Origin: a virus
Direction: 5' to 3' (one strand)
Length of the DNA: 38,429 nucleotides
Virus record (IMG/VR): IMGVR_UViG_3300022305_000519
This document shows, piece by piece, positions 1,121 to 22,034 of this stretch. The stretch's first letter is position 1; every line of letters begins with the position of its first letter. The notes below the pieces were generated by a model, which had not been told where the DNA came from, ran no database searches, and was given only the letters and a program-made list of their open reading frames with translations. A program made the position numbers and the translations under genes.

Positions 1121-1121
1121 T

Positions 1122-1274
1122 ATGGAATCAGGCAATCAGCAACAATTCCAGGCTGAAGTAATGGATGAGCTTCGGCAGCGCGAAGAAATGGACGAGCTAG
1201 ACAATCGGCAAGCTATGCTGGAAGAGCGGCGCAAGCAGGATGCAAAGATCATCGAACGTAAGGAAAAGAAATGA
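1122..1274 (+). CDS. Small charged coiled-coil protein (50 aa)
   Basis: GGAGG lies 5 nt upstream of the ATG. The stop overlaps the Erf start (ATGA). Confidence 0.5.
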   Translation: MESGNQQQFQAEVMDELRQREEMDELDNRQAMLEERRKQDAKIIERKEKK

Positions 1275-1936: not shown

Positions 1937-2379
1937 TGGCATCCGTTAACAAAGTAATCCTGCTGGGCAATTGTGGCCGTGACCCTGAGTTACGCTACCT
2001 GCCTAGCGGCAAAGCAGCCTGCAATATCAGTATTGCCACTTCTAACAAGTGGAAGGACAAGGACGGCAATCCGCATGAGGAAACGCAGTGGCATCGCGTA
2101 CAGTTCTTTGACAAGCTGGCAGAGATTGCAGGCGAATACGTGAAAAAAGGCTCCCCAGTCTACGTAGAGGGTTCTATCAAGTACGGCAAATTCACCGACA
2201 AAGAAGGCTTCGAAAAGAACACCGTAGACATTATGGCGACCTCTCTGCAATTGCTTGGCAGTAAAGAGCCTGGCAGCAATGAATCTGCTAAGAAGCCTAG
2301 CCATGATGCAGCAAAGGCGCGTCAATTGCCAAAGCAAGGAAGCGGGTTCGAGGACATGAGTGATGACGTGCCTTGGTGA
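1936..2379 (+). CDS. ssb: Single-stranded DNA-binding protein
   Basis: OB-fold N-terminus MASVNKVILLGNCGRDPELRYLPSGKAACNISIATS...TQWHRVQFF, flexible linker, and an acidic C-terminal tip FEDMSDDVPW. Confidence 0.95.
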   Translation: MASVNKVILLGNCGRDPELRYLPSGKAACNISIATSNKWKDKDGNPHEETQWHRVQFFDKLAEIAGEYVKKGSPVYVEGSIKYGKFTDKEGFEKNTVDIMATSLQLLGSKEPGSNESAKKPSHDAAKARQLPKQGSGFEDMSDDVPW

Positions 2380-2419
2380 TCTGAACAACTGGAACGGCTG
2401 CAAAGCAAAGGAGCAACCA

Positions 2420-3223
2420 ATGAACAAGCCTGAACAACCCGATGCGCTGCGGCTGGCGGATGAGTACGTTGGCGCTGCAATTACTGCCCACGCAACAGGC
2501 GGTGAGTTTTATTATCGTAAGCGGGACGCAAAGAAAGCAGCACTTGAAGTCGAACTACGCCGCCTGCACGCAGAGAACGACCGTCTCCGCATCATCGCAG
2601 ACACCGACAAGGCCAGCGCAGATCACTGGCGTGCTGAGTGCGAGAAGCTGCGCCAATCGGTTGAGCCTGGGACAAAACTATACGCATCCCCACCCCTACA
2701 GGCAGACGCCAGCCAAGACGGATGCAACAACTGCCGAAACCCACTGTTCGCCGGGACAAAGTGCAAGAACTGCGGGAAAGTGTTTGAGCTGGCAGAGCAG
2801 CCCAAGGGCGGGGAGTCGGTGGCGTGGGCTGAGAGATACGCGAAGGTTCTTTTAAAGCTCAAAGACTCTCTTGCCGAAAGAGGCGGTCGTCCGGTCACCC
2901 CGGAGAAAGCTGCGCTGTGGGATGAGGCTTGGAGTGTTTACGAAAGCATGTTGGAGTGGGCGCATAACTCCCAGCAGCAGGCCGCATCCCCAGCAGCACC
3001 CGAGGCGTCAACTGTGGTGGAGCTGATGCGTGGCGTCTACCCGTACCCAGCAGCACCCCTACAGGTAGACGCCTGCAAGGTTCCGATGGAGGTGGTTACT
3101 TTCCTGCGTGGCGCTGGTACTCTGGATGGCGTTTGGTTTGGAAATCGGCATCCTACCGAACGAGGAGAGTTCTGGTGGCGCAAGTGGCTCTCAGCATCCC
3201 CAGCAGCACCTACACAGGAATAA
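2420..3223 (+). CDS. Modular hypothetical protein (267 aa): N-terminal coiled coil, CxxC...CxxC zinc ribbon, and repeated ASP(AA)PLQxDA linkers
   Basis: Internal ATG of tracked ORF 2360-3223, with AGGAG 7 nt upstream. Contains CNNCRNPLFAGTKCKNCGK. The linker peptides are encoded by dispersed DNA repeats. Confidence 0.75.
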   Translation: MNKPEQPDALRLADEYVGAAITAHATGGEFYYRKRDAKKAALEVELRRLHAENDRLRIIADTDKASADHWRAECEKLRQSVEPGTKLYASPPLQADASQDGCNNCRNPLFAGTKCKNCGKVFELAEQPKGGESVAWAERYAKVLLKLKDSLAERGGRPVTPEKAALWDEAWSVYESMLEWAHNSQQQAASPAAPEASTVVELMRGVYPYPAAPLQVDACKVPMEVVTFLRGAGTLDGVWFGNRHPTERGEFWWRKWLSASPAAPTQE

Positions 3224-3245
3224 AAAAGCCCCCTTAATTGGGGGC
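3222..3245 (-). terminator. Intrinsic terminator at the convergence point of the plus-strand and minus-strand operons
   Basis: Stem gccccc (3228-3233) / gggggc (3240-3245) with loop ttaatt. On the minus strand the stem is followed by TTTTTT (3227-3222). On the plus strand it is preceded by an A-run, so it may act in both directions. Confidence 0.75.
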
Positions 3246-3264
3246 CAAGTCTTTCGGCAACTGC

Positions 3265-3714
3265 TCATTTAGGCCATGCTTGAATCAAGGTTTGTCGCTC
3301 TGATTCAACTCGGTCAAGCGTTTCTGCCAAGCCAGTAATTTCTGTCGCGCACTGTCCGAATAGCTCTGAGACTGCTTTGCTTCGCTCACGGGTGGCATTG
3401 CAGGACTCGGAGGGCATTCTGTCGATGCCGTTAGCGAGTTCGAGGCGCAGCCGGTCAAGCTGATAGCGAGAATCAGCAGCATCAATCCTGAGTTGAGTTT
3501 CACGCTTCTTAGCTGCATTGAGTGCCTCGTCTTTCTTTGCTTGCAATCTATCCTGTTCGCGCTGTGCTGCTTCAAATAGCTTATGCGCTGCTTCGGATTG
3601 CTCAAACTTCATCGCTTCGATCTGCTCACCATATCTCCACGACTGCGCCTGCCATGCACCAGCAAAAGCGATTGCAGCTCCTAGAAAGCTAGCTGCTAGA
3701 TGGGTGTAGATCAA
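3265..3714 (-). CDS. i-spanin (Rz-like)
   Basis: N-terminal TM segment LAASFLGAAIAFAGAW, then a long charged coiled coil. It is the last gene of the lysis cassette and contains an embedded lipoprotein ORF. The TTG start overlaps the upstream TGA. Confidence 0.75.
   Translation of the reverse strand: MIYTHLAASFLGAAIAFAGAWQAQSWRYGEQIEAMKFEQSEAAHKLFEAAQREQDRLQAKKDEALNAAKKRETQLRIDAADSRYQLDRLRLELANGIDRMPSESCNATRERSKAVSELFGQCATEITGLAETLDRVESERQTLIQAWPK
3285..3518 (-). CDS. o-spanin (Rz1-like lipoprotein), fully embedded in the i-spanin gene in another frame
   Basis: Internal ATG of tracked ORF 3285-3605 gives MQLRSVKLNSGLMLLILAISLTGCASNS.... This has a signal peptide plus the lipobox LTGC, followed by a Pro-rich short mature part. 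Confidence 0.7.
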   Translation of the reverse strand: MQLRSVKLNSGLMLLILAISLTGCASNSLTASTECPPSPAMPPVSEAKQSQSYSDSARQKLLAWQKRLTELNQSDKP

Positions 3715-3860
3715 GGCTTGTATCCTGGTGTTTCAGGCTCTGGATAGACCGGCCTGCTATCGTATCGCTCTGTAACTTTGCTTTCCTCGTTACGCCATTT
3801 CCATAGTTCTCGTTGCAGTTGATGGCGAAGGCGTTTTCTGGTGTAGCGTTTCAGAGTCAT
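3711..3860 (-). CDS. Small basic protein (49 aa) between the endolysin and the spanins
   Basis: The ATG overlaps the endolysin TGA (TGATG) and the stop overlaps the spanin TTG start. No recognisable motif. Confidence 0.35.
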   Translation of the reverse strand: MTLKRYTRKRLRHQLQRELWKWRNEESKVTERYDSRPVYPEPETPGYKP

Positions 3861-4258
3861 CAGGCATAACTCCATAGTCCTGGTCTAGGCATTGTAGGAG
3901 AACTTTCGCAGGTATCAAGGTGAATAAATCTTCCTGATCCTTTTTGCTGAATGCCGATGCCTGTAAAACCTTGAGCGAGAGCGAGTTTAAGCAGCCTGTA
4001 AGCGTCTTTTCCTTGTACTGCTACGTCACACGCCTTACCTGTCGTATGAGCGCCTGTAGTGGCTTTCTTGGCCTCTATGGGGTGTGTCTTGTCCCTGTAC
4101 CCGCTGGTGATAGTCATTGAGCTACCATAGGCTAGGCGAAGTGCCAGCAGCTTGGACATGAATTCGTTGTCCATCTCGCACTTACCAGAGTGCTTACAGC
4201 GGAATTCGTACTCTCGAAAGTACGGAGCGTAATCAGCCCAATCTACCGTACTTTTCAT
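3860..4258 (-). CDS. Endolysin, peptidase M15-type (zinc D-Ala-D-Ala carboxypeptidase-like fold)
   Basis: EFRCKHSGKCEMDNEFMSKLLALRLAYGSSMTITSGYRD...GAHTTGKACDV matches the M15A/M15_3 pattern (SGYR ... H..G.A.D). Located in the lysis cassette. Confidence 0.8.
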   Translation of the reverse strand: MKSTVDWADYAPYFREYEFRCKHSGKCEMDNEFMSKLLALRLAYGSSMTITSGYRDKTHPIEAKKATTGAHTTGKACDVAVQGKDAYRLLKLALAQGFTGIGIQQKGSGRFIHLDTCESSPTMPRPGLWSYA

Positions 4259-4568
4259 TCAGGAATTCCTTAACGTGCATTCCACGAAACCAGAGCCATA
4301 GCCAGAAAGAAAACATGGACATGATTGCAATCATGATCGAGTCAAGCAATATGCGCATATCTCCGTGGAAAGCAGCCGCCATCATCCAAGCAGAAGACCC
4401 TACAGTACACATGATGAAAATCATGACGATGTTAGGTGAGCTTGTCGGTGCTGCTGTGGCCATGCTCATGAAGTGAGCAAACATCGCGGCTCCAATGATG
4501 AAAACCATCAACCGATGGAAGAAAAATGATGGCAATACATCTTGCCATGTAACGAATAGTTCATTCAT
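4233..4568 (-). CDS. Multi-pass membrane protein, holin or antiholin candidate (111 aa)
   Basis: The ATG at 4568 overlaps the upstream TGA (ATGA), with GAGGTGG upstream. The tracked ORF begins at a GTG at 4580. Three or four hydrophobic segments. Confidence 0.6.
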   Translation of the reverse strand: MNELFVTWQDVLPSFFFHRLMVFIIGAAMFAHFMSMATAAPTSSPNIVMIFIMCTVGSSAWMMAAAFHGDMRILLDSIMIAIMSMFSFWLWLWFRGMHVKEFLNEKYGRLG

Positions 4569-4939
4569 TTTTTCAACCACCTCTTGACAGCGTAATCAGC
4601 CAGGAACGGGAAAAGCAAAGCAATCACGAAAGCCGACAAGTAGATAGTAGGCTTAGGATAGTCAAAATGCAAAACAATATTCGGCAAGTAAGGCCCTGCA
4701 AGACCACCTAGGAATACAGAGATGATCCCATTTCCTATAGCTGATCGGCGGCTTTTCTCTTCAATCTTGAAGTAAGCCCCTGCTGCCCCAGCCCCAGCAA
4801 CCGCCCATGTAACTGGATCAAATCCAAGAGAAGGTGCGATAACAGCAGCCGTAACACCTGTAGCAAGTGCAGCGCCAACAGCGTGTTTAGATGCCACTAG
4901 TGAGGCGAAAAGGATCATTAGTTTGCTTCTCAATGTCAT
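4565..4939 (-). CDS. Multi-pass membrane protein, holin candidate (124 aa)
   Basis: Hydrophobic segments LMILFASLVAS.., GVTAAVIAPSLGF, WAVAGAGAAGAYF, GIISVFLGGLAG and YLSAFVIALLFPFL. ATGA overlap with the upstream gene. Confidence 0.6.
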   Translation of the reverse strand: MTLRSKLMILFASLVASKHAVGAALATGVTAAVIAPSLGFDPVTWAVAGAGAAGAYFKIEEKSRRSAIGNGIISVFLGGLAGPYLPNIVLHFDYPKPTIYLSAFVIALLFPFLADYAVKRWLKK

Positions 4940-5421
4940 TCCCGCCCCTTAAAGAAATCTTCGGTTACATCGTATCCAATTGTAGCCAAAATGGCCGCAA
5001 ACTGAGAAGGGCCGAATATGTGCGCGTCCTTCAGAAATGGAGCGCCTACAGCCTGATTACAGAAGTATTGACCGCCTTGTGATAGCTGGGCAGGTATGGC
5101 TGTTGCGAACGCTCCTAGCGTGTTATACGGCGCTCCCTGATGCTCTTTGAACCACTGGCAGGCTGTTTGCTTGTTCCACGGCGTTTGGAAGATGATCCAA
5201 TGATCAGGATTAAGCCGGACGTTTTTCTTGATCCGCACGCCACCTTCACGCAGGCTAGAACTGCCAATATCTACCGTACCATTGTCATGCTCTTTAAGGA
5301 TAGCTTCTACATGGGTGACGCGCCAATACTCGCCCTTCTGGACAAGTCGAGTAGCCCACCATCCTAGACGGACTAGCGGCGTATCTTTAGAGTGGTCGCC
5401 AATGAAACAAGCAACGAACAT
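4936..5421 (-). CDS. Putative permuted papain-fold (YiiX/NlpC-P60-like) hydrolase; possible second cell-wall hydrolase
   Basis: A His-containing block (WRVTHVEAIL) precedes a Cys block (GQYFCNQAV), the order expected for permuted papain-like amidases. Located in the lysis cassette. Family assignment is tentative. Confidence 0.45.
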   Translation of the reverse strand: MFVACFIGDHSKDTPLVRLGWWATRLVQKGEYWRVTHVEAILKEHDNGTVDIGSSSLREGGVRIKKNVRLNPDHWIIFQTPWNKQTACQWFKEHQGAPYNTLGAFATAIPAQLSQGGQYFCNQAVGAPFLKDAHIFGPSQFAAILATIGYDVTEDFFKGRE

Positions 5422-5630
5422 AGCTTAGTCCAGACGTTATCAAAAATAACTCTTAGCTTGTAGAGCCAAACCACTCGCAATACAAGAAGCAATAGCGATA
5501 CTAGACCGCTTTGCATATGGCTTACATTTGCGCCGACAAGCATATACAGAAAAGGGATAGCAGCAATATTGAAAAGAAGTATTCCTAAAGATGCTATGAA
5601 CGCTTCTGTAAGATGCTTTTTGTTCAGCAT
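5373..5630 (-). CDS. Small two-TM membrane protein (85 aa)
   Basis: The ATG overlaps the upstream TAA (TAATG). TM segments AFIASLGILLFNIAAIPFLYMLVG and GLVSLLLLVLRVVWLY. The 3' end overlaps the next gene by 49 nt. Confidence 0.5.
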   Translation of the reverse strand: MLNKKHLTEAFIASLGILLFNIAAIPFLYMLVGANVSHMQSGLVSLLLLVLRVVWLYKLRVIFDNVWTKLCSLLVSLATTLKIRR

Positions 5631-6094
5631 TAGATAGGCTCTTCAGTCCAGAGGAAAGTAACAAACAGAGGCTTTCCGTACAAGGTGCTACGCACAAACA
5701 AACTATTCCCTTGGCCTAGCAGAATAGGAAACTCCAATTCAACTAGTTTACCTCCTAGGTTTTCATTATTCCAGATTTGTCCACCGTCATACTCTGGGCC
5801 TACTTTGATTTCATTGCGGGCATGAGCCGATGAATATGGACGTTGAGCGCCATCAATCAAAGGAAGGCCGCGAGACTCTCCAAATGATGCGCCAGTCATC
5901 ATCGGGCCACCGCGAAGACAGACGGTAAACCCATCACTGCAAGATACCCACATCTTATTCAATCGCGCCCTATGGGTTGAATCGATAGGCACATACAACT
6001 CACAATGCGCCCGAGCAAGCTGCCCTGTATTGCCTTGTACGTTGTTAATCTGATCTTGCGTAATGAACGCTGGGCGCATGAATTGCTGTGTCAT
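5630..6094 (-). CDS. Hypothetical protein downstream of the tail fibres (154 aa)
   Basis: Internal ATG (MTQQFMRPAF...) of tracked ORF 5630-6151. It starts next to the stop of the upstream gene. Confidence 0.65.
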   Translation of the reverse strand: MTQQFMRPAFITQDQINNVQGNTGQLARAHCELYVPIDSTHRARLNKMWVSCSDGFTVCLRGGPMMTGASFGESRGLPLIDGAQRPYSSAHARNEIKVGPEYDGGQIWNNENLGGKLVELEFPILLGQGNSLFVRSTLYGKPLFVTFLWTEEPI

Positions 6095-6095
6095 A

Positions 6096-6584
6096 TTAAA
6101 TCCTGTAGGTTCCAGAAACACGGAAAATAGAAGTACCTGCCAAATCAGCAACTGTTAAAGCATTAGCTCCACCAGCAGTAAAACGAAATAATCTGATTGT
6201 CGATGTATTTTCAACATTATCAGCCATTAATGCTGTAGTAGCTGTAGCCGCAAGATTTGTAGCTGTTACAGAAAATGCCGCCTTGTTGTTTGTAGCGCTA
6301 TTGCTGTTAAATGGAAGATTTGCAATAGTCACACTACCAGCAGCAAGCGTACCTAATGTAGCAAGCTGCACATTACATACAAAATGAATAAAACTTCCTA
6401 CTCTTTCATAGTATCCATACTGAACTGAATATGTAGGAGTGCCACCTCCAGAGCTAACAACTGTTGGAGTAAATGTGTTTTCTTCAAAATCTGGCTTTTC
6501 GTTAACTATAGTTGCAATATCTCGATACCATCGAGCAGTCTCTGCATCGACGTTTTGCCTGGGAGTTACGTTTAGCTTCTTCAT
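6096..6584 (-). CDS. Tail-fibre-associated protein (162 aa)
   Basis: Thr/Ala/Ser/Asn-rich, beta-like composition. ATGA-type coupling to the 360-aa fibre gene. Confidence 0.6.
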   Translation of the reverse strand: MKKLNVTPRQNVDAETARWYRDIATIVNEKPDFEENTFTPTVVSSGGGTPTYSVQYGYYERVGSFIHFVCNVQLATLGTLAAGSVTIANLPFNSNSATNNKAAFSVTATNLAATATTALMADNVENTSTIRLFRFTAGGANALTVADLAGTSIFRVSGTYRI

Positions 6585-7666
6585 TAAACCTGATATTCAG
6601 TGATTCGGATAAACGAATTAATCACGCCACCCAATTGACGAGCCGATGATGCTCCATTAAATGTAGTTGTACCTGCGCTGCTAGAACCAGCACGAATTTT
6701 AAACGTAGTCGCCGAAGTTGTACCAGCTACCATAGTATGTGAAAGAGTCAAACCAGCAGGGAAAGTACCGCCAATACCTGCATATGTTGCAACAGACAAT
6801 GCATTTGCGGTAGTATCTTGAAACAAGGCCATGATAAATGCAGGCCCTGCTGAATGTGAGAAATTACCACATGCATCAATAACAAGAATATTACTTGAAT
6901 TAGTTGGAGTAATTGCCAAAGTCATATACTCGTTACCCTCAGTATTTTGAGGGATAGTATCGTCTGCTGGAATAGTAGTAGTACCAGTTCCTACAGCTCC
7001 AGTAATTGAGTAAACAGTTTGTTTAATTACCTTAGCAGTAGTCCAAGTGGGAGCAGATGTGCCACCACTTGTAAAAAATTGACCGCTGGTTCCAGCAGCA
7101 AGAAAAGCCGTATTATCAGTTGACGTTTGATAGGCAATTTGCCCGCCAGCACCACCGGCAATATTTGTCGCTTTTGTTGCAGTGGTTGCAGTAGTTACAC
7201 TTGTTGCTGATGTTGCAGTATTCGCAGCACCGGGCGCAAGGCTTTTAACCATGTAGCTAACTACATTCCATCCATTAGGCGTACTGTTTGGAATTGCTAC
7301 ACAAGAATCTCCTGCTGCTGTCGTAATATTTGCGCTACCTGGGAGATTCAGAGTAGTAGCATTATGCGTCAGCGTAAGAGCGCCAGTAAATCGAATAAAT
7401 CTAGGCCCGTTATATGTCGTACCAAAACTTGTAATAGTAGTTGTACCGCTAATCTCAACAAACATGGCATTCTGTGCTCCAATGTCTGTCGTAGTCGCAG
7501 AGGCAAGCGTTACTTGGTCTGTAAAGCCTTTACCATCACGAAGGGTAGCGATAAACGCAGCGTATTGGCGTAGGTAGTTATCGGCAGTGATAGGGCTCTC
7601 GGAACCTGCCGGGCTGTTGCTGGATTCTGTTTGCGAAAGATCGCTGATTGCGCTAGGTACGGGCAT
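6584..7666 (-). CDS. Tail fibre or receptor-binding protein (360 aa)
   Basis: N-terminus MPVPSAISDLSQTESSNSPAG..., then long Thr/Ala/Gly/Ser-rich beta-type sequence. Its position follows the ejection-protein-like genes. Confidence 0.65.
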   Translation of the reverse strand: MPVPSAISDLSQTESSNSPAGSESPITADNYLRQYAAFIATLRDGKGFTDQVTLASATTTDIGAQNAMFVEISGTTTITSFGTTYNGPRFIRFTGALTLTHNATTLNLPGSANITTAAGDSCVAIPNSTPNGWNVVSYMVKSLAPGAANTATSATSVTTATTATKATNIAGGAGGQIAYQTSTDNTAFLAAGTSGQFFTSGGTSAPTWTTAKVIKQTVYSITGAVGTGTTTIPADDTIPQNTEGNEYMTLAITPTNSSNILVIDACGNFSHSAGPAFIMALFQDTTANALSVATYAGIGGTFPAGLTLSHTMVAGTTSATTFKIRAGSSSAGTTTFNGASSARQLGGVINSFIRITEYQV

Positions 7667-11628: not shown

Positions 11629-12036
11629 TTACACCTCTGTTTCCATGATTTGATAAACTGGCTTGAACCCACTTTTCATGGAATAGAGCCGCGCCTGTGC
11701 TGGCTTTGCAGCGCACCTAACGCGAGAACATCCGAGGGCTCTTGCCATCTGTGTTAGCTGGCCGTAGAACCGCTCAAAGTGGCTATTTGGAGCCACCATG
11801 TCAGTAACGAACAAAACTCGGATATTCGGCAATTGATCAACCCTGACCACGCCCCACCCGACCGTTTCTCCGTCCTCTGACATTTGAATCAGCGTCCTCT
11901 CTCCACGAGAGAGAATAAGTTTTAGCTGATCTCCTGTTATCTCACCGCCTGAAACCTCACAGGCTTTACTTAAACAATCAGCCCCTTCACGCCATGCAAA
12001 ATCAATATGACTGGCTTGAATTGGCTTTAATTCCAT
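11629..12036 (-). CDS. GNAT-like acetyltransferase-fold protein (135 aa)
   Basis: The C-terminal ...ARALGCSRVRCAAKPAQARLYSMKSGFKPV resembles the GNAT A..LY.k.GF block. The canonical R/QxxGxG motif is not evident. Confidence 0.45.
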   Translation of the reverse strand: MELKPIQASHIDFAWREGADCLSKACEVSGGEITGDQLKLILSRGERTLIQMSEDGETVGWGVVRVDQLPNIRVLFVTDMVAPNSHFERFYGQLTQMARALGCSRVRCAAKPAQARLYSMKSGFKPVYQIMETEV

Positions 12037-12094: not shown

Positions 12095-13555
12095 CTATCG
12101 CTCTCCAGCAGGCTTAATAATTGGCCGGATATGGGTTACTTTCACATTCCCAGTAAAGTTAATTGATACGCTATGCCAATATGCCTCTTGCATCGTGTCA
12201 AACTTGTTATCTGCAATAAATACTGTTTCTCCTGTAGATGGAGAATCTCCGCTGGAATCCTTGTGATAGAAAGTTGCGCTTGCGGTAGTTGGCGAAAATG
12301 TCTCAGGGAATCTAAGGCGAAGCTGTGTCAGTAACGATCTACCATCATCATCCCCTGCATCACCAGTTGTAAAGCTCGAAGCGCCAGCAGCACCAGTAAG
12401 CAATTGAAGCTGATGCGATGTGTTGAAAACTGACAAAGCAGAGCCACCACTCAACCAATATTGCGAGTCATAGGAAATATCCGGCAGTGCGTCATAACTT
12501 GCCCCAAAGCTACTCCAAGTATCGTAAGTAGCGCCAGAGGAAACATACTGTACAGCAGCCTCAATAGACCTATCTGCCTTGCCCCATTGCTTAGTTACTA
12601 CGTGATAAACAAGCGCACTATTACAAGTGGTCGAACTGCTGGACGGATAGAAAATCCATACTCTGTTATTTTGACGGTCGAACACGCATTTAATTTTTGA
12701 TTTGAATGATGCGTTTACATTGTCAAAAAACCATTGCCTTACAGTGTCATCTGCTGCAGGAATAGGACGCGATCCGTCAAACATCCAGATATTGTCATCT
12801 CCTACAAAGAAATGGACGCCGCCAATATCGCAGATAGCCTCTTTCCCTACGCATCCAGCCTCACCGCCTGGAACTAGACGCCAGTCCCACACTGTAGTGC
12901 CGCCAATGTACTGTCCGAGATAGATGGACTTGAGTTTATAGGCGATTGCATAGTCACCAAGCCTAGCTCCAGCAGTGATGATTCCAGACGTATCAACTAG
13001 CTGACCGGATGCCGCTTGAGTTGTTACGGATGGAGTCCAGCTAGTTTCATCAAATGTTGCACAGTTATGCCAACCGTCAGGCTTATCAGTACCATCATTC
13101 GTGTTAAGCGCCATCACAAAAGCGCCAACAGAAAACACTATTTCAGCTTTTGGAGCGCCTGAAACATCAGCGAAAGCACCACTAGTGCTACTGCGCTGCA
13201 TAGCGTCTGTTTTGTTTACTGCAATGGTTGCATTGCCAAATTGAGTAAATGCCCAGCGAGTATCAGAACCACCAGTATAGTTGCCCCCACTTGCGCGGGT
13301 TACATCAGCCCATGAGCCTGAACTAAGTTCATATAGTTTTGTGGTAGTACCTGCGAATACTCGACGCGATCCACTGCGAATAGTGACAATGGATGTGCCG
13401 ATACACTCAGCAGCCAAAGCCGGAACATCTGCCGGAGTTGAGTTAGATGGCCCTGCCTGCATCCCATTACGATACGGGACAAAGTTTGTGCAGTCAGTTA
13501 TTACACCAGGAGTTGTCCGCTCAAGATCGGGAGAAAAACCGAGCAAAGGAATCAT
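12095..13555 (-). CDS. Tail hub or nozzle protein candidate (486 aa)
   Basis: Beta-rich, propeller-like sequence. Its size and position are analogous to P22 gp10 or tail tubular protein B. Confidence 0.55.
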   Translation of the reverse strand: MIPLLGFSPDLERTTPGVITDCTNFVPYRNGMQAGPSNSTPADVPALAAECIGTSIVTIRSGSRRVFAGTTTKLYELSSGSWADVTRASGGNYTGGSDTRWAFTQFGNATIAVNKTDAMQRSSTSGAFADVSGAPKAEIVFSVGAFVMALNTNDGTDKPDGWHNCATFDETSWTPSVTTQAASGQLVDTSGIITAGARLGDYAIAYKLKSIYLGQYIGGTTVWDWRLVPGGEAGCVGKEAICDIGGVHFFVGDDNIWMFDGSRPIPAADDTVRQWFFDNVNASFKSKIKCVFDRQNNRVWIFYPSSSSTTCNSALVYHVVTKQWGKADRSIEAAVQYVSSGATYDTWSSFGASYDALPDISYDSQYWLSGGSALSVFNTSHQLQLLTGAAGASSFTTGDAGDDDGRSLLTQLRLRFPETFSPTTASATFYHKDSSGDSPSTGETVFIADNKFDTMQEAYWHSVSINFTGNVKVTHIRPIIKPAGER

Positions 13556-14145
13556 GCAGGCCTCACCTGAAGACTGGCACCGTATTTACGCTGGTTATTG
13601 TCTCGTACAATCCTGTCAATCGCTTGCTCGTATGCTGCTTGCCTGACCTGAGCATTTGCAGGATCACGCGCAAAAATGAAAAGCTGCGTCATAGTTCCAT
13701 GCAGATAAGCATCAGGATATTTAGTGATAATTGCGTTTGTCGCGTTAGACCCGCTAAGTCCGGTAAAAGATGCCATGTAGTTGATCACAGCACTACCATC
13801 AAGCGTAGAGCTAAGAACAATGTTTGTGCCTTTGATGGTGTAGAAGTTAGGAAGATTTGATGTAAGGATGATTGCATCAAACTTATCTGGTGTGATGTAT
13901 TGCATTGGCCGCTTGTAGTCACCAGACCAATATACATTTCGCATTCCTCGATAGTCGCTAGGAAGTGCGGCAACACCAGCAGTAACTGTAAGCGTGCTGG
14001 TGCCTTCAAAATCTACGTTCTTCAGGCGGACTTGCATATCAGCTTCACAAAGCTGGATGAAGTTAGGAATATCGCTTGTCAGGTCAGAACGGAATGAATG
14101 ACGAGTTACAGCCGTGACTAGCTCTGAATATGTGGAAATGCTCAT
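13552..14145 (-). CDS. Head-to-tail adaptor or tail tubular A-like protein candidate (197 aa)
   Basis: Position immediately upstream of the hub-like gene, translational coupling, and size comparable with podovirus adaptor proteins. Confidence 0.5.
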   Translation of the reverse strand: MSISTYSELVTAVTRHSFRSDLTSDIPNFIQLCEADMQVRLKNVDFEGTSTLTVTAGVAALPSDYRGMRNVYWSGDYKRPMQYITPDKFDAIILTSNLPNFYTIKGTNIVLSSTLDGSAVINYMASFTGLSGSNATNAIITKYPDAYLHGTMTQLFIFARDPANAQVRQAAYEQAIDRIVRDNNQRKYGASLQVRPA

Positions 14146-14693
14146 TTCGCCTTCACCAATACGTTAAAGCCGTTGGGTGTGGCTTGGAATGACTGCAACT
14201 TAAAACGCTGCATGATCTTTGGCAGCCACCAGTCGGATGATTTTTGAATCAAGTGTGCGTTGCGGCCATCTGATAGAACCTTCTTTGCCGGTCCGGTGTG
14301 TACCGTGAAAAATCCCCATTTCTCAGTGAGCATCATCAGGTCGTCTAGCACGTTATCCAAAAGCTCCGGCTCGATATGCTCCAGCACATCAATGCTTACT
14401 ACTAAATCGGCTGGCTCTTTTCCCGAGAATTCAGGTACTCCTGGGTCATATCCTAGATACTCACAGTCACGCTCTACCTTGAGCACTTTCAGCAGATTAC
14501 GCATAGACCCACAGCCGTAATCAAGCATAGTATTGCACTCCAGCCGGTCAACTAGGTCAGAGACAATATTGCCATATTGCAGACTTGCAGTGCCGTAGTT
14601 TCCTTTGGCGTGCAGTGATTCCTGCTCTTTGCGGTAGTCTGGAGAAATTAGCATAATGTTATTGAATGACCTTATGGAAATCAAATCCCGCAA
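14142..14693 (-). CDS. Class I SAM-dependent methyltransferase
   Basis: Motif I MLDYGCGSM, followed by YLGYDP and ADLVVSIDVLEHIEPE (Methyltransf_11/23-like). The tracked start is TTG at 14693; an ATG alternative lies at 14654. Confidence 0.75.
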   Translation of the reverse strand: MRDLISIRSFNNIMLISPDYRKEQESLHAKGNYGTASLQYGNIVSDLVDRLECNTMLDYGCGSMRNLLKVLKVERDCEYLGYDPGVPEFSGKEPADLVVSIDVLEHIEPELLDNVLDDLMMLTEKWGFFTVHTGPAKKVLSDGRNAHLIQKSSDWWLPKIMQRFKLQSFQATPNGFNVLVKAK

Positions 14694-15997
14694 ATAGTTG
14701 GATTATCTTTGAGTCTTAGAATAGTGTTATTCCAAGTCTCTCCATTACGCTGTCTGAATAGTTTTGCGCTATTGTACCAAGGGAACTGATTAGCGTAAAG
14801 CCATAATGTCTGATCTGGCACTAGGATGACGCCAGGAACGCCCAAAGCGCCTGCCAAGTGGTGTACTGAGGTATGCACTCCGATAACCATGTCTAGGGCT
14901 GCTACAAGCCCTGCTGTGTCGTCATAGTCATCCGTCATCGTGGCGCGTTTCCAGTGCTTTACCGGAAGACCAGACGCGGCTATTTCATCGTTCGGGTCTT
15001 TATACTGTAGGCTAACCCATGTGATTTCTGGGTGTGCCTCAATCAGCGGCCTAAATGCCTCTAGGCCAATTGCCCGTGCTTCTCGCTTATTGTGTTTTGA
15101 TCCACCCGACCATGCAATGCCGATAGATTTGCCTTTTAGCACAGCTTTCCACTGTTCTACGCGCTCGTGATCAGCTTTCAGGTATGGCGTTCCAGGGAAT
15201 GATGCTGCAGAACGACGAAAGAATTTAGGCAGAGTACCAATAGAACAGCGACCATCAAAATGATATTTGTCCAACCAATCCACAGCCTCACGGCGGGTGC
15301 CATATACATCAACATTCGGAAATGATCGGCGGAATAGTCCTTCTAGTCTCTTATCACACTCTAGAACAACTTTATTATCTTTTGCAACATCTTGCAAACA
15401 GCTTGCATACATCACTTCATCGCCGAGACCTTGTTCACCATAGACAATCAGCGTCTTACCCGGCATTCCATTCCAGCGCGATTCATCCTGATACTGCGTT
15501 TCCTTGCGAAACTTGCCACCTAGCAGGGCCTCGTAATTGTCCCACCCTGTCGCCCAATCGTTGACGGCAAGGGACGCCATAGCAAGCACGGAGCGCCCCG
15601 CTGTAGGGTCGATCTGACGCGCTTTGTTAGCCCACTCGATAGCCTGTTTGTAGTCTTGGGTACTGAGATAGCAGTTACCGATGTTGGATGCGTAGTTTGC
15701 ACGCTTATCAAGGTGCCATGCCTTGCGAAACATTTTCATGGCCTCAGTGTGCATTTTCATGCCTTCGTAAGCCATGCCAAGGTTATTCCATGCCTCGGAC
15801 TTCTCAGGGCGAATATCAGTTACTCGCTTGAATATGTGACTCGCCATGCCAAAGCGCTCGGCTTCAGCATAAATTTGCCCAATCAGGAAAAGGGCTAAAG
15901 AGTCATTAGGATTTTTGTCTAACAGTGCAGCGCATTCGTGTACTGCTTTATCAGGGTCTTGCTTAGACAGTTCCTGAAGGTCTGTGTAAATGCCCAA
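14681..15997 (-). CDS. TPR-repeat protein fused to a GT-B, family-9-like (heptosyltransferase-like) glycosyltransferase domain
   Basis: N-terminal TPR units (ALFLIGQIYAEAERFGMA.., AWNNLGMAYEGMKMHTEA.., SNIGNCYLSTQDYKQAIEW). C-terminal blocks LIVYGEQGLGDEVMYASCL and DDTAGLVAALDMVIGVHTSVHHLAGALGVPGVILVP resemble GT9 signatures. Confidence 0.7.
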   Translation of the reverse strand: MGIYTDLQELSKQDPDKAVHECAALLDKNPNDSLALFLIGQIYAEAERFGMASHIFKRVTDIRPEKSEAWNNLGMAYEGMKMHTEAMKMFRKAWHLDKRANYASNIGNCYLSTQDYKQAIEWANKARQIDPTAGRSVLAMASLAVNDWATGWDNYEALLGGKFRKETQYQDESRWNGMPGKTLIVYGEQGLGDEVMYASCLQDVAKDNKVVLECDKRLEGLFRRSFPNVDVYGTRREAVDWLDKYHFDGRCSIGTLPKFFRRSAASFPGTPYLKADHERVEQWKAVLKGKSIGIAWSGGSKHNKREARAIGLEAFRPLIEAHPEITWVSLQYKDPNDEIAASGLPVKHWKRATMTDDYDDTAGLVAALDMVIGVHTSVHHLAGALGVPGVILVPDQTLWLYANQFPWYNSAKLFRQRNGETWNNTILRLKDNPTICGI

Positions 15998-16327
15998 TTA
16001 GATTTTGCCTTTAGTGGTGAAGCAATGCCCGTACTTGTCTCGGTTGCGTGCTAGGAATTTACGCAGTTCCTTGGCTGGCTGAGAGTATGGATTGAATTTA
16101 TCTTCAACCATCATTTTAAGACAATCTGCCTCTGACAAGTGGATACAGTGCCAAAAATTATTCTTGATGCCGTTTTTGCTGTATTCGTCAGACTCTCGCA
16201 AGTCTTTATTCCATTGGTGCGCTGCGCTTGTATTCTGCGTATAGCGAACCTTCATCTTTCCATCTTCAAAGCCAATGTCTGTGACAAGGCCGGTAATGGG
16301 GTCAATATTTCTGTCTACGATTGCCAT
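15998..16327 (-). CDS. Hypothetical protein (109 aa)
   Basis: The ATG at 16327 overlaps the HNH stop (TAATG). The tracked ORF extends to 16342. Confidence 0.6.
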   Translation of the reverse strand: MAIVDRNIDPITGLVTDIGFEDGKMKVRYTQNTSAAHQWNKDLRESDEYSKNGIKNNFWHCIHLSEADCLKMMVEDKFNPYSQPAKELRKFLARNRDKYGHCFTTKGKI

Positions 16328-16899
16328 TATGCGTCCTTCCAAGTTCTGCCGCGACGTATTCTAAGCACAGTCGATATATGTAGGCTATATTTTTCAGCGT
16401 AATACTTTGCTTTGATGTGATTATTATCTCGTATTTCTCTAGCTTGCTCTGCTGTTATTTTTGCCTTTGGGTTATTTTCTCCTACATGAATAGGAGGTTT
16501 GATAAACCTGTTTTTGTCCATCGCATCATGCGTGTTTTCTTTGGCAGTACCAAATCTAAGATGATCTGGGTTCACGCACGAAGGATTGTCGCAAGAATGC
16601 AAGATGTACATTCCATCTGGTATCTCGCCTTTATGAATTTTGTAGCTCAGACGATGGGACATTTCTTTACCATCTTTCTTGCTACCAAGTCCAATAGTCC
16701 CATAACCGTTTAAAGTCTTTGCCCCAGTCCAAATCCAACAATCTGAAGTTTTATCAACGAACTTCCAGAATCTTACTTCTACCGATGTGCGTTTCCTCGC
16801 TACCAAATCAGTAGTGCCATTGCGAAAAAGTCTCCCGTAGTGCTTTCGGCATAAACCTTTTGCAACTACGGGAGACTCGCAACCTTCGATAGAACACAT
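16327..16899 (-). CDS. HNH homing-type endonuclease
   Basis: N-terminal Zn-ribbon CSIEGCESPVVAKGLCRKHYGRL, then WIWTGAKTLNGYGTIG and HSCDNPSCVNPDHLRFGTAKENTHDA (HNH_3-type). AAGGA lies upstream of the ATG at 16899; the tracked ORF starts at 16938. Confidence 0.85.
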   Translation of the reverse strand: MCSIEGCESPVVAKGLCRKHYGRLFRNGTTDLVARKRTSVEVRFWKFVDKTSDCWIWTGAKTLNGYGTIGLGSKKDGKEMSHRLSYKIHKGEIPDGMYILHSCDNPSCVNPDHLRFGTAKENTHDAMDKNRFIKPPIHVGENNPKAKITAEQAREIRDNNHIKAKYYAEKYSLHISTVLRIRRGRTWKDA

Positions 16900-16944
16900 G
16901 GTAATCCTTGGAGTTTTTACACCCCAAGTATACCACAATTCTAT

Positions 16945-17913
16945 TTAAGTGACGCTCTGGATTTTAGCATGGGCGTCGGGATTATCACCTATCAGGGTGA
17001 ATTCCGTCAGGATTTCACCGCGAGTGGCATCACCCGTCTTAGCACGCTCCTCGAATTTGATCGGTCGCAAGAATCCGACCGACACATATTCGGGGTCAAG
17101 TGCAAGCAGTGTACCGGTTCGCATGTAGCGATTGAGCGAGATTTTATGCTCACCAAAGTCGCTGATGTACAGGTCAACACCGCCGATAACCACTGCTTGA
17201 GCGGTACGAGCGCCAGAGACTTGCACACCTGAGAACTTGGAAGCACCGCCGAATGTAGCGATCTTGCGTTTCAGTGTCGAGTTGACCATGATAAGGCTTG
17301 CATCTCCACCGTCAGTCCATGCGGCTTCCAGTGCGGAAACCAAGTCGCCTTCGGTCATTGCCGTAGCGGTGCCGTCCGTAACAGCGCCCCAGACGCCAGC
17401 AGCGTAACCGGGCGTGGTGCCGGTCGTGTTGCCAGTGCCAAGGATACGATTGCCGGAAATCATCGCTTCGATACCAGCCGAAGAACGAGCGGTGCCAGAG
17501 CCACCAGCAGACGAAACCTGATTCTGCACAAGTGCAAATTCAATGTCTCGCTTCAGTTCTTTGCCCTTCTTGGCGATCTGATATGCGAATTCAGCAGCGC
17601 GGCCATACTTGCGAACTGCATCAGCAGTGCCAGAAACCATGACGGTTTTCTTAGCGATCTGCGTGTAGTTGGAAAGCATGGTAGTGGGGGTCGCGGTAGC
17701 AAAAGTGCTATCGTCGCCTTCAATCGCCCGGTTAGCAGCAGCAGCAGCCAGCGAATCGGTCTGCCACTGGTGCAGGGTGTTCGTGACTTTCTTGCGCTTT
17801 GCCATCGATAGGAAAGGGGTTTCCTCGGGCGAGATGTTAAAGATAACGTCTTCGACGTCTTCTGCGATACCTACGAGGTCGTAGCTATCAGTGGTTCCAG
17901 TTGATTGTGCCAT
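16945..17913 (-). CDS. Major capsid protein (HK97 fold; SU10/DUF5309-like N-terminus)
   Basis: ...YDLVGIAEDVEDVIFNISPEETPFLSMAKRKKVTNTLHQWQTDSL..., 322 aa, directly downstream of a scaffold-like gene. Confidence 0.85.
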   Translation of the reverse strand: MAQSTGTTDSYDLVGIAEDVEDVIFNISPEETPFLSMAKRKKVTNTLHQWQTDSLAAAAANRAIEGDDSTFATATPTTMLSNYTQIAKKTVMVSGTADAVRKYGRAAEFAYQIAKKGKELKRDIEFALVQNQVSSAGGSGTARSSAGIEAMISGNRILGTGNTTGTTPGYAAGVWGAVTDGTATAMTEGDLVSALEAAWTDGGDASLIMVNSTLKRKIATFGGASKFSGVQVSGARTAQAVVIGGVDLYISDFGEHKISLNRYMRTGTLLALDPEYVSVGFLRPIKFEERAKTGDATRGEILTEFTLIGDNPDAHAKIQSVT

Positions 17914-19033: not shown

Positions 19034-19324
19034 TCATGCAACCCATGATTTCATCCGATCTTTCATACTCTTTTTCTTGGCCTCTAGATTGATCTGAGCA
19101 ATCTTGCCATCCGTCACGCACTTCATAAAGAATGCTTGATACTTGGCATGGAAATACTGCATGGCTTTGATATGCTCAAGCGTTTCCTTATCCTGCGGAG
19201 TAGTTTCTTTCCACAGCCGATATACTTCGCGCTCGACGTGTTCGCAAGCCTCTTTCCACAGGTCATCATTAATGATGTTCTGTGCGCGATAACCGCGCTG
19301 GATTTCAGTTTCTGTTTTGTCCAT
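19034..19324 (-). CDS. Hypothetical protein (96 aa)
   Basis: Clean ORF coupled to the upstream gene (ATG at 19324, upstream stop adjacent). Confidence 0.65.
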   Translation of the reverse strand: MDKTETEIQRGYRAQNIINDDLWKEACEHVEREVYRLWKETTPQDKETLEHIKAMQYFHAKYQAFFMKCVTDGKIAQINLEAKKKSMKDRMKSWVA

Positions 19325-20250
19325 TACATCATTAGTAAGATCAATTCGTCGTCACTGATACGCTTAACGCTCTTTTTGACATTAGCTATTACTGTAGTCT
19401 CAATAATAGGCGTTGTCAATGCCTCAAGCTCGATTAATAGCCCCTCTACCTTTGCCCATTCCTGTGCGGATACTGTCTCAGGCTTAGGAGATTCTGCAAC
19501 CTTGGCTTTCTTGGCCTCTTTGAGCCGATACTTCTGTAGCAGGGCCTGCACCATTACGGCAAGCTCTTGCTCGGTCAAGAAGTACCGTTTACCCTCGATT
19601 TCGTACCATTTACGATTAGATATGTTACGGGCAATTCCACCTCTGCGCTCTTGCTGCGCTGGCGTAATGTATATTGCAGCATCGCCACCAGTTATCGAGT
19701 ATTCACCGCCCAAAGCCGTCAATACATAAGCGCCTGGGCTTGTCTTTGTAATGACAGCATCGCCACCAGCCAAGGCATACGCGCCACCCTGTGCCGACAG
19801 ATTGCGCCCACGGCTGATGATTGCTGCTGCGCCTGTGTATGCGTAAGTTCCTCCCGTGGCACTCAGGCTGCGATTCTTGAGAATCGTCGCGGTCTGTCCT
19901 GTATATGTGTAACTACCGCCCTGTGCTGTCAGGGTGTAGCCAATAGCACCGGGAGTGTATGTAATCGTCGCTTGCTGACCTGTATAGGTGTATGCGCCGC
20001 CTGATGCCGTCAGAGTCCTATTCCGGCTTAATACAGCCTGTGCGCCGTTGACCGTGTAAGCGCCACCCTGGGCGACTAGGCCACGATTCCGGCTGATTAC
20101 CGCGCTTGCGCCTGTTAGTGAGTAGCTACCGCCTAACGCTGTTAGAGTGTAAGTAGATCCACCAGCCGTAGCATTCGGATCGCGCAGCCTTACATCGTCT
20201 GAATCTGGATCAGAAGGGACTGACCATAGAATGATGTCATTCCCAGCCAT
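19324..20250 (-). CDS. Repeat protein (308 aa) with eight GG-x-Y-x-x-T-G... units of about 22 aa, plus a helical C-terminal domain
   Basis: Read from the translation: GGSYSLTGASAVISRNRGLVAQ / GGAYTVNGAQAVLSRNRTLTAS / GGSYTYTGQTATILKNRSLSAT / GGTYAYTGAAAIISRGRNLSAQ, and so on. Confidence 0.75.
   Translation of the reverse strand: MAGNDIILWSVPSDPDSDDVRLRDPNATAGGSTYTLTALGGSYSLTGASAVISRNRGLVAQGGAYTVNGAQAVLSRNRTLTASGGAYTYTGQQATITYTPGAIGYTLTAQGGSYTYTGQTATILKNRSLSATGGTYAYTGAAAIISRGRNLSAQGGAYALAGGDAVITKTSPGAYVLTALGGEYSITGGDAAIYITPAQQERRGGIARNISNRKWYEIEGKRYFLTEQELAVMVQALLQKYRLKEAKKAKVAESPKPETVSAQEWAKVEGLLIELEALTTPIIETTVIANVKKSVKRISDDELILLMM
19654..20163 (-). repeat. Coding tandem repeat of about 66 nt (22 aa), in about 8 diverged copies
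   Basis: Periodicity seen in the protein (aa 30-199 of the 308-aa ORF). The copies have diverged at the DNA level. Confidence 0.7.
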
Positions 20251-21038: not shown

Positions 21039-21590
21039 TCATGGTGTCAGTTGTTCAAGGATGAACTGATGACAGGTAAACGAGCCGGTCGCCACGGTCT
21101 GCGTAAAGAACACATCCAGCGTCAAGGCAGACTGAGAGTTGAAACCAGTACCAACAACAGGAGCAGTGTTGTATGGAACCACGATGTTACCTGACCACGG
21201 GCCAGTAGCTACAGCCGCCGTGTTTAGGAAGGCAGTCGATGACAGCAGGCCCTGAGTAATTAGGTTGGCCGATGTACCTGAACCCACTGCACGGCAAGTA
21301 ATCAGCGCGTCGTACTGCCACGGCACAGTAGTCTGTGCAACGATGTTCAGAGGAACGGCAAGTGTATCCGAAGCCACAACACCCCCCAAACGAACATCAA
21401 TACGGAATGTTCCTGGAGTGGTAACGGCGCAGGATACACGGCCTGCCATGCGAAGACGCCAAATGCGACCGATCTGCCAGTAACCAGCAGGAAGTGTGGT
21501 TGGGACGTAAGTAGGTACACAGGAAGCCGCTGCTGCTGCCGTGAGCGTTGGACCGTCTGTGTAACTTGATGCAATGACTTGAACTGCCAT
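21039..21590 (-). CDS. Hypothetical virion-module protein (183 aa)
   Basis: Beta-rich Thr/Ala/Val/Gly composition. Packed inside the structural operon. Confidence 0.6.
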   Translation of the reverse strand: MAVQVIASSYTDGPTLTAAAAASCVPTYVPTTLPAGYWQIGRIWRLRMAGRVSCAVTTPGTFRIDVRLGGVVASDTLAVPLNIVAQTTVPWQYDALITCRAVGSGTSANLITQGLLSSTAFLNTAAVATGPWSGNIVVPYNTAPVVGTGFNSQSALTLDVFFTQTVATGSFTCHQFILEQLTP

Positions 21591-21599
21591 AATTTTCCT

Positions 21600-22034
21600 T
21601 TAAGTGATCTTGAATACACCGACCGTAGCCGTCTGGTCTAGGTCTACCGTTACGGTTTCAGCGGCTGCAACGGCTTGGGATGAGCCGTAGTCCCAATACC
21701 CAACAACAGTACCGTTAGCGCCTTGCAATACGGTCTTGTTGACTAACAAGGCATAGCGGAAGGTAAGCCCGCCACCTGATGCAGTCCATACGGCAGGATC
21801 AGCCAGAACAAGCACGAAGTCCGAACCGTTCATGCCTGCGCTAGTCGTGCTGACGTTGTTACCGCCTGCTGTATATCCACCAGACGTAGCAAGGTCAGTC
21901 GTGCCGGAAGTAAACACCTTAGACGCTGGAGCGCCTGAAGCCAGTGCTATAGCCCATTGGTCCGTCCCGGCATTAATGCCTTCGGCCAAGTCTTCAATGG
22001 CTGCTGTAACTTTTACATAACTTGCGGTAGGCAT
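21600..22034 (-). CDS. Hypothetical virion-module protein (144 aa)
   Basis: The start is coupled to the portal stop. Beta-rich sequence. Confidence 0.6.
   Translation of the reverse strand: MPTASYVKVTAAIEDLAEGINAGTDQWAIALASGAPASKVFTSGTTDLATSGGYTAGGNNVSTTSAGMNGSDFVLVLADPAVWTASGGGLTFRYALLVNKTVLQGANGTVVGYWDYGSSQAVAAAETVTVDLDQTATVGVFKIT

Follow-up and report, generated by a model that had tools for sequence, protein, structure and literature searches.

A candidate FlmG-type protein glycosylation module in the structural operon of an uncultured SU10-like podophage

What would a phage glycosylate from within the operon that builds its own particle? The question is raised by IMG/VR virus record IMGVR_UViG_3300022305_000519, a stretch of 38,429 nucleotides (the window, to whose whole length all coordinates refer), in which two consecutive minus-strand open reading frames (ORFs), 14681-15997 (438 aa) and 14142-14693 (183 aa), encode a tetratricopeptide repeat (TPR) protein joined to a glycosyltransferase domain (TPR-GT) and a methyltransferase (MTase). 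Judging from their sequences, the two genes very probably constitute an active protein glycosylation module of the type represented by the flagellin glycosyltransferase FlmG, and on balance we take a virion protein to be its target. Hundreds of uncultured phages have the module in this position, flanked by capsid and adaptor genes, which suggests that these phages place sugars on a protein of their own particle. The module comprises the following features:

14681-15997, minus strand: TPR-GT gene, 438 aa, FlmG-like predicted protein O-glycosyltransferase (Pfam TPR, AlphaFold2 (AF2) model, BLASTP)
15563-15991, minus strand: TPR domain, about residues 3-145, predicted acceptor-binding part (Pfam TPR_1/2/8, AF2 helices)
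14684-15475, minus strand: GT-B catalytic domain, about residues 175-438, with a GT9-like fold (Foldseek, motif conservation)
14142-14693, minus strand: class I S-adenosylmethionine (SAM)-dependent MTase, 183 aa from a TTG start, probably 170 aa from ATG 14654 (Pfam Methyltransf_23, phrog_24759)

The N-terminal part of the TPR-GT matched the Pfam families TPR_1 (E 1.1e-16), TPR_2 (4e-16) and TPR_8 (3.5e-15), and in the AF2 model nine helices at residues 3-144 correspond to 4-5 TPR repeats. All models were built from alignments of homologues; the full-length one reached a predicted local distance difference test (pLDDT) of 91.7 and a predicted template-modelling score (pTM) of 0.86, and the C-terminal domain modelled alone reached 92.4 and 0.91. 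The C-terminal ~290 aa gave nothing significant in Pfam or, by phmmer, among PDB sequences: Pfam PF01075 (GT9) was not matched, NCBIfam TIGR02193 scored 16.8 bits against a cut-off of 185, and a sub-threshold NCBIfam heptosyltransferase I match covered residues 358-404 (E 0.003). PF01075 is reached only by cellular multi-domain relatives (27.8-37.7 bits), and some giant relatives with tandem copies pass the Pfam GT9 threshold. The catalytic domain is thus assigned only through structure prediction with Foldseek and through transitive homology. Its model matched the heptosyltransferases WaaF (1psw, E 1e-8, template-modelling score (TM) 0.57) and WaaC (6dfe, TM up to 0.59), the GT9 enzyme 3tov (TM 0.58; a Veillonella GT9 enzyme was among the top matches) and the protein heptosyltransferase TibC (E 1e-5, TM 0.51-0.55). 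The first-pass annotation, which was made from the sequence alone, had described a 438-aa protein with N-terminal TPR repeats and a GT-B, family-9-like C-terminal domain; both halves of that description hold, WaaF, WaaC and TibC being the nearest solved folds. The profile search that it had proposed for the glycosyltransferase domain yielded no Pfam or NCBIfam assignment, and the GT9 fold emerged from structure comparison.

With the full-length model as query, the top Foldseek matches were SPINDLY, XcOGT and OGT (E 6e-12), at a TM of only ~0.34. Because of this low score, and because the isolated catalytic domain matches GT9, these hits were discounted as evidence for GT41, to which there is no Pfam match either, and membership of that family was rejected. 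The likeness to GT41 is one of architecture, a TPR domain that presents the protein substrate followed by a GT-B domain, and the analogy with OGT that had been drawn at first sight stands to this extent; closer kinship does not follow, since without its TPR the domain is nearest to GT9 and not to GT41.

The analogy with FlmG, which had likewise been drawn at first sight, proved to be real homology. BLASTP aligned the phage protein with a 596-aa Caulobacteraceae protein (P0333) encoded in a flagellin cluster, at 30% identity over 417 aa (E 3e-44); the alignment is collinear, taking in the linker and the entire GT domain as well as the last TPRs. A Caulobacter sp. protein encoded beside flagellins was matched at 32% over 415 aa (E 7e-46). 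The P0333 cluster reads flaEY, acetyltransferase, flagellin, flaG, flagellin, flagellin, flaF, flbT, P0333, cytidylyltransferase and acetyltransferase. Among the homologue labels the name FlmG did not occur, only 'tetratricopeptide repeat protein' being returned, so that orthology has to be argued from length and gene context; from these and from the architecture we infer that P0333 is the orthologue of C. crescentus FlmG. FlmG recognizes flagellin through its TPR domain (PMC7591256), and its choice of donor, pseudaminic or legionaminic acid, is determined by the GT-B domain (PMC7591256; bioRxiv 10.1101/2022.03.25.485807). Besides the sequence homology to the Caulobacteraceae orthologues (30-32%, E 3e-44 to 7e-46), the phage enzyme and FlmG of C. 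crescentus and Brevundimonas have the invariant motifs in common, and both are soluble and cytoplasmic. Compared with FlmG, the phage enzyme has a TPR domain of about half the length, and its gene lies in a virion operon and not among flagellar genes. Pathway genes for pseudaminic or legionaminic acid are missing from its vicinity, its acceptor is presumably not flagellin, and its donor-side motif reads HTSVHH, against SNATIN in the orthologue. Flagellin genes were found neither in the window nor in the 80 best viral loci. As far as sequence can tell, the 438-aa protein is an intact member of the FlmG-type protein O-glycosyltransferase family, of which it is a new viral branch.

Conservation of the catalytic domain was assessed in an alignment of 219 domains (85 viral and 134 cellular), and all family-invariant residues are retained in the phage TPR-GT. 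The signature residues are 84-100% conserved in the two sets, and at least 94% among the viral ones, and every one of them is present in the window protein: E188-Q189-G190-x-G192-D193-E194, R224-S225-F226-P227 (RSFP), R261, G293, D369, H380, G386, W399, W407-Y408 and W422. The first of these is the motif EQGxGDE at residues 188-194, in which E188, Q189, G190, G192 and D193 reach 100% in the viral and 98-99% in the cellular domains; a second motif, VIGVHTSVHHLAGALG, occupies residues 371-386. The segment KTLIVYGEQGLGD193E resembles RVLIVKTSSMGD13V of WaaC and takes the same strand-loop-helix position in the model, the two being equated by inspection in a segment that hhalign did not align. Further downstream, hhalign placed residues 359-392 of the family profile on the WaaC motif D261-T262..H266, over 34-37 residues only and at a probability of 3-7%, pairing VIGVHTSVHHLAGALGVP of the phage with VVSVDTGLSHLTAALDRP of WaaC; in this pairing VIGVHTSVHH stands opposite VVSVDTGLSH, so that the heptose-binding Asp261 of WaaC corresponds to His375 in the phage protein. 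A domain without catalytic residues had been named beforehand as a finding that would speak against glycosylation; what was found is that the family-invariant residues including D193 are kept and that WaaC Asp261 is replaced.

The GT9 enzymes WaaC and WaaF and the protein heptosyltransferases TibC and AAH (BAHT) are the nearest solved folds (TM 0.51-0.59, E 1e-8 to 1e-5). They have in common with the phage TPR-GT a C-terminal xTxxxHLxxALGxP motif and, by inspection, a beta1-loop-helix Gly-Asp motif, and TibC demonstrates that a GT9-type fold is able to O-glycosylate proteins in the cytoplasm. The phage domain differs from them in having no Pfam GT9 match, only 11-14% identity, His in place of WaaC Asp261 and a fused TPR domain, and the iron-binding dodecamer signature of TibC is absent from the phage protein.

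The second gene was correctly read at the outset as a class I SAM methyltransferase. Its product matched Pfam Methyltransf_23 narrowly (E 1.7e-6, 28.3 bits against a cut-off of 27) and phrog_24759 'methyltransferase' (6e-20), and it carries motif I, LDYGCG(S), and DVLEHI, which are kept in relatives at 41-82% identity. The Pfam and NCBIfam scans gave no similarity to the N6, N4 or C5 DNA methyltransferase families and pointed to generic small-molecule/protein MTase families instead, and a PDB sequence search gave no informative relative. Because the relatives start alike, ATG 14654 (170 aa, with a 26-nt spacer) is more likely to be the start codon than TTG 14693. Two non-orthologous MTase types (23% identity) fill the same slot in the viral relatives.

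The TPR-GT gene is not a product of chance, since thousands of homologues exist. The catalytic domain has 2233 homologue clusters in a 90%-clustered collection; the top 120 of these are all 363-485 aa long, most of them ~440-480 aa, nearly all have TPR matches and many lie on contigs of 30-46 kb. When representatives at 50% identity were searched exhaustively, 33,554 proteins reached E <= 1e-3. Bacterial homologues come from Betaproteobacteria, Caulobacteraceae, Rhodospirillales, Acidobacteria and Planctomycetes. In Caulobacteraceae and several other metagenome-assembled genomes (MAGs) the homologue adjoins flagellin genes, and in a Pseudomonadales MAG a 1139-aa family member lies between fliC-fliD and fleQ-fleS. 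Many cellular relatives (P0121-P0270) are far larger, measuring 1000-3100 aa, and contain two to six tandem GT9-like domains with TPRs between them. The viral relatives in BFVD are all uncharacterised, and our literature search found no description of FlmG-like or TPR-GT genes in podophage structural operons, the searchable literature being incomplete.

Betaproteobacteria and Methylococcus contain clusters in which two to four TPR-GT paralogues alternate with homologues of the phage MTase and of the GT8-like gene. These look like large uncharacterised protein-glycosylation islands, and one relative (P0236) is a natural fusion of a TPR, a GT and a Methyltransf_24 domain. Such bacterial clusters (L016, L017, L020, L023, L030, L037, L040 and others) also hold FkbM methyltransferases and GT2 enzymes. 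A functional counterpart is found in the flagellin glycosylation islands of Pseudomonas (Fgt1/Fgt2, VioM), where VioM methylates the terminal sugar of the P. syringae flagellin glycan (PMC3927599): a protein-directed GT, a glycan-extending GT and a sugar MTase form the same functional trio as TPR-GT, GT8-like enzyme and MTase. The likeness is one of function, and the islands encode a nucleotide-sugar pathway whereas the window does not.

The surroundings of the module bear directly on its target. Its flanking features are:

16945-17913, minus strand: major capsid protein (MCP), SU10 type, upstream boundary of the slot (Pfam SU10_MCP 3e-94)
16327-16938, minus strand: HNH homing endonuclease between the MCP and 114-aa genes (Pfam HNH_3 4.7e-12, phrog_3593 9e-38)
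15998-16342, minus strand: 114-aa post-capsid protein, a backbone gene outside the module (homologues behind the MCP gene with or without the module)
13552-14145, minus strand: head-to-tail adaptor, SU10 type, downstream boundary of the slot (Pfam SU10_adaptor 9.2e-28)

The minus-strand order is unbroken: portal (phrog_1216, 2.9e-149), scaffold, MCP, HNH endonuclease, 114-aa gene, TPR-GT, MTase, adaptor, a 486-aa nozzle/hub-like virion protein (phrog_3287) and ejection-type proteins. The TTG start of the TPR-GT gene directly abuts the TAA stop of the 114-aa gene, and the MTase stop overlaps the adaptor start (ATGA). No minus-strand terminator-like site was found inside the two enzyme genes or at their junctions, and their G+C content (0.47-0.48, against ~0.49 for the whole window) is native. 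These data bear out two claims of the first-pass annotation, that the enzyme genes sit between the capsid block and the tail adaptor and hub genes and that both are translationally coupled to structural genes. Its description of the phage as P22-like was imprecise at the family level: by their matches to SU10 Pfam families, the virion genes make up an SU10-type and not a P22-type module. The HNH endonuclease is a mobile passenger of the structural operon outside the module, because only some relatives have it.

A scan identified at least 536 viral contigs that carry the TPR-GT gene, and synteny was counted in the best 80 of these loci. In all 80, every detected gene is on the strand of the TPR-GT; the MCP gene lies upstream in each of the 51 loci with enough upstream sequence, and the adaptor gene downstream in 56 of the 57 loci covered. 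Four relatives inspected singly, at 89%, 69% and 60% (catalytic-domain) and 35% identity, have the same order. Sixty loci hold both the MCP and the adaptor gene; of these, 46 have an MTase, 38 a GT8-like gene, 17 a further 262-aa gene and 11 the TPR-GT alone. The GT8-like gene (for example L003, 11292-11978) stands between TPR-GT and MTase in the closest relatives (89% and 72-74% identity) and is absent from the window, where a gap of ~26 nt is found at 14654-14683. Its Pfam scores lie around the threshold of 24.3 bits (L001, 4.9e-9 and 36.6 bits; L008, 26.2 bits; L003 and L006 slightly under). In SU10-like phages without the module, the capsid gene is followed by that for a ~100-aa protein and then directly by the adaptor gene. 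Distances between GT domains and between MCPs are correlated (r = 0.80), a sign that the TPR-GT gene was not acquired recently but has long descended together with the structural genes, and such long residence in the structural operon of hundreds of related phages favours a virion-related role.

One module-free SU10-like phage (L174, MW202711.1) carries a different, 209-aa 'putative glycosyltransferase' at 5350-5979. This gene, too, is flanked by those of the small post-capsid protein and the adaptor, which makes the slot look like a hot spot for glycosyltransferases.

Taken together, TPR-GT and MTase may form a minimal protein-glycosylation module that has long resided in the late structural operon of a large SU10-like podophage lineage. 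The 438-aa protein would be a soluble FlmG-type protein O-glycosyltransferase, whose short N-terminal TPR domain would bind the protein acceptor and whose GT9-like GT-B domain would take a sugar from a nucleotide-sugar donor supplied by the host and attach it to Ser/Thr of the bound protein, with the invariant Asp193 of EQGxGDE as the likely catalytic base. The MTase would then methylate the attached sugar or, less likely, the acceptor itself. Most relatives would first lengthen the glycan with a GT8-like enzyme; since the window phage has no such gene, any glycan that it makes should be shorter. The most probable acceptor is a core virion protein that is conserved and synthesized concurrently, and the outcome would be progeny particles with a (methylated) glycan. 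The activity of the enzymes, their donor and acceptor and the part played by the MTase are inferred, and it is with some reserve that we favour this account of a late-expressed O-glycosylation module that modifies a conserved core virion protein, the MTase capping the sugar.

Which virion protein might be modified can be narrowed by conservation. Because the TPR-GT gene is placed in the late operon, coupled to its neighbours and fixed across the lineage, it is most economical to assume that the acceptor is a virion protein likewise conserved in these phages. The first-pass annotation had proposed that the phage glycosylates one of its own virion proteins, with the capsid, Thr/Ser-rich fibres and a 22-aa-repeat protein among the targets. 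Its general reading is in part supported by the architecture, by the FlmG homology and by residence in the structural operon, but the fibre and repeat-protein targets, like the P22-like label, did not withstand comparison: homologues of the 308-aa repeat protein and of the 183-, 144- and 188-aa proteins were found in 0-1 of the 25 related loci that cover the interval. Being absent from 24-25 of the 25 relatives, these proteins cannot be the conserved target, which is thus to be sought among capsid, scaffold, portal, small post-capsid proteins, adaptor and nozzle. Among these the MCP is the leading candidate, followed by the adaptor, the nozzle, the portal or a small post-capsid protein. The 114-aa protein was considered as a dedicated, module-specific substrate and rejected, because its homologues follow the capsid gene in module-free phages (L170, L172) as they do in module-carrying ones.

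Several results weigh against this account. An alignment of 61 MCPs from module-positive phages with 7 from module-negative ones revealed no specific insertion or Ser/Thr-rich extension, and only four Ser/Thr columns differ (S134, S135, T167 and S206), confounded by phylogeny. A mirror-tree comparison of TPR-domain distances with those of MCP, scaffold, adaptor and nozzle did not discriminate among them, as all correlate (partial r 0.38-0.59). Genes for nucleotide-sugar synthesis, including the nonulosonic-acid pathway, were not found among the scanned ORFs of the window. The column of WaaC Asp261, occupied by His in the phage TPR-GT, is variable across the family, which would fit a determinant of donor specificity. 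The link to C. crescentus FlmG runs through the presumed Caulobacteraceae orthologue and not through the published sequence; within the phage collection, the protein most similar to the TPR-GT, at 35% identity, comes from an uncultured phage, and no cultured phage has the exact module. Finally, the characterised TPR-GT relatives act on a host protein, flagellin.

This last point leads to the alternative that retains most weight, although we regard it as unlikely: the enzyme pair might modify a host protein such as flagellin, pilin or another surface protein, and so alter either a receptor (for superinfection exclusion, or to spare progeny from debris) or motility. It would agree with the fact that flagellin is the substrate of the sole characterised relatives and that family members adjoin flagellin genes in several bacteria. 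The phage also has lambdoid-type early genes (ERF, NinG, SSB), and in one relative (L057) the module is located at the end of a bacterial chromosome record, so that some members may be temperate. The position of the gene argues otherwise, as it occupies a fixed place amid the late structural genes, to which it is coupled, in effectively all 80 relatives, and co-diverges with the capsid gene, a pattern unlike that of host-conversion morons, which are sporadic and separately expressed; late expression would leave little time to alter an already assembled surface. Moreover, the phage TPR domain (~145 aa) is half as long as the ~290-aa region that precedes the GT in the FlmG orthologue and aligns only over its last repeats, and no integrase was found in the window, though some ORFs are without assignment.

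A role of the GT9-like enzyme on a non-protein glycan, such as lipopolysaccharide (LPS) core or capsule, in the manner of WaaC and WaaF, with the MTase modifying that glycan and the host surface changed as a result, appears very improbable. The nearest solved folds are indeed LPS heptosyltransferases, and the weak heptosyltransferase I match at residues 358-404 points the same way; however, the similarity to FlmG-type proteins (E ~1e-44 over 417 aa) far exceeds that to WaaC/WaaF, which is confined to the short low-probability motif alignment described above. The missing Pfam GT9 match and the replaced heptose-binding Asp also speak against it, as does the fused TPR domain, a hallmark of protein-directed GTs, and the arguments from operon position apply here too. 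Hardly more credible is the idea that the TPR-GT is a non-catalytic assembly or chaperone protein with a GT-like fold, and the MTase independent of it. TPR proteins are often chaperones, but the invariant motifs, including the Gly-Asp at the presumed position of the GT9 catalytic base, are kept across the viral and cellular domains, and the gene co-occurs with further glycan-building enzymes (GT8, MTases). That the pair hypermodifies phage DNA by base glycosylation and DNA methylation to evade restriction is the least credible of all, since, although DNA-glycosylating phage GT-B enzymes exist and phage glycosyltransferases are often assumed to be such (PMC12619734), no hydroxymethylase, TET/JBP-like enzyme or DNA methyltransferase family was found among the scanned ORFs, the MTase fits generic small-molecule/protein families, the homologues of the GT are TPR protein GTs, and the genes lie in the virion and not in the replication module.

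Modification of a virion protein, the reading that we prefer, would place this lineage beside a small group of phages. To our knowledge, phage-encoded covalent virion glycosylation has been demonstrated so far only for some mycobacteriophages. In these phages, glycosylation of the virion shields the particles from antibodies. Che8 and Rita are two mycobacteriophages for which glycosylation of the particle by enzymes of the phage has been documented (Freeman 2023, cited by PMC11256854 and PMC12619734). According to these citing accounts, Che8 resembles the present case in that glycosyltransferases from the phage's own genome are proposed or shown to act on its structural proteins. In Che8, glycans have been demonstrated on the C-termini of capsid and tail-tube proteins, whereas for the SU10-like module such modification is predicted from its genes. 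Che8 differs in being an actinobacterial siphovirus whose GT genes lie near the genome end and not in the capsid-adaptor interval; in the accounts cited, its enzymes are not described as TPR-fused or FlmG-like.

In its widest and more tentative form, our proposal is that an uncultured lineage of SU10-like podophages may O-glycosylate a core virion protein, for example the MCP, by an FlmG-type enzyme that shares ancestry with bacterial flagellin-type islands, while swappable GT8-like/MTase cassettes diversify the glycan. If this is true, it would be the first virion glycosylation system outside the actinophages and a new class of phage surface variation. Self-glycosylation would then be widespread in another lineage of environmental phages, a very abundant one (at least 536 viral contigs, 2233 protein clusters), and would rely on a different class of enzyme, the TPR-guided FlmG family, with a modular set of glycan-diversifying genes. 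It would also provide a second, experimentally tractable acceptor system for the TPR/GT9-like family, whose more than 33,000 representative clusters are largely uncharacterised, and a compact 438-aa protein-targeting glycosyltransferase could serve the glyco-engineering of capsids.

The hosts of the SU10-like lineage are probably Proteobacteria in freshwater and soil. Freshwater viromes such as those of Manatee Spring or of the JGI 3300035187 type are rich in these phages. Transfer RNA genes, which were sought in the window as a hint of the host, were not found. The sole such hint seen is L057 (OZ001190.1), a 4.99-Mb alphaproteobacterial chromosome record (Thalassobaculaceae) with portal, MCP, TPR-GT and adaptor genes at bases 1-7475; this run could be a prophage or an assembly join.

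The interval between portal and scaffold, occupied in the window by the genes of the 308-aa repeat protein and the 188-, 183- and 144-aa proteins (19324-20250 and 21039-22034, both minus strand), holds other genes in the relatives L003 and L006, including a second methyltransferase and a SASA-like esterase, and looks like a second variable cassette of the head module. A tandem-repeat finder detected no DNA-level repeats in the region of the repeat protein.

Outside the SU10-like lineage, the cultured cyanomyovirus Synechococcus phage S-SRM01 (L178) encodes at 4479-5828 a protein, gp338, with TPR and GT9-like domains (BFVD, TM 0.68). Its neighbours are a long tail fibre gene and genes for RCC1-repeat proteins, a 2OG-Fe(II) oxygenase and a sulfotransferase, and this may be a second virion-modification cluster. 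Ralstonia phage RsoM2USA is another cultured phage with a homologue in a different gene context.

The early region of the window phage, with the lambdoid-type genes ERF, SSB, NinG and DUF1376/DnaT, also encodes a 273-aa protein (29173-29994, minus strand) with a Thg1 domain of the tRNA-His guanylyltransferase family (Pfam Thg1 1.6e-25, and a weak Thg1C match), an enzyme unusual for a phage. Downstream of the nozzle-like gene, a 135-aa gene (11629-12036, minus strand) without a Pfam match is kept in relatives (11 loci); the gene syntenic with it in MW202512.1 is labelled 'putative acyltransferase', and it may encode a further modifying enzyme of the virion module.

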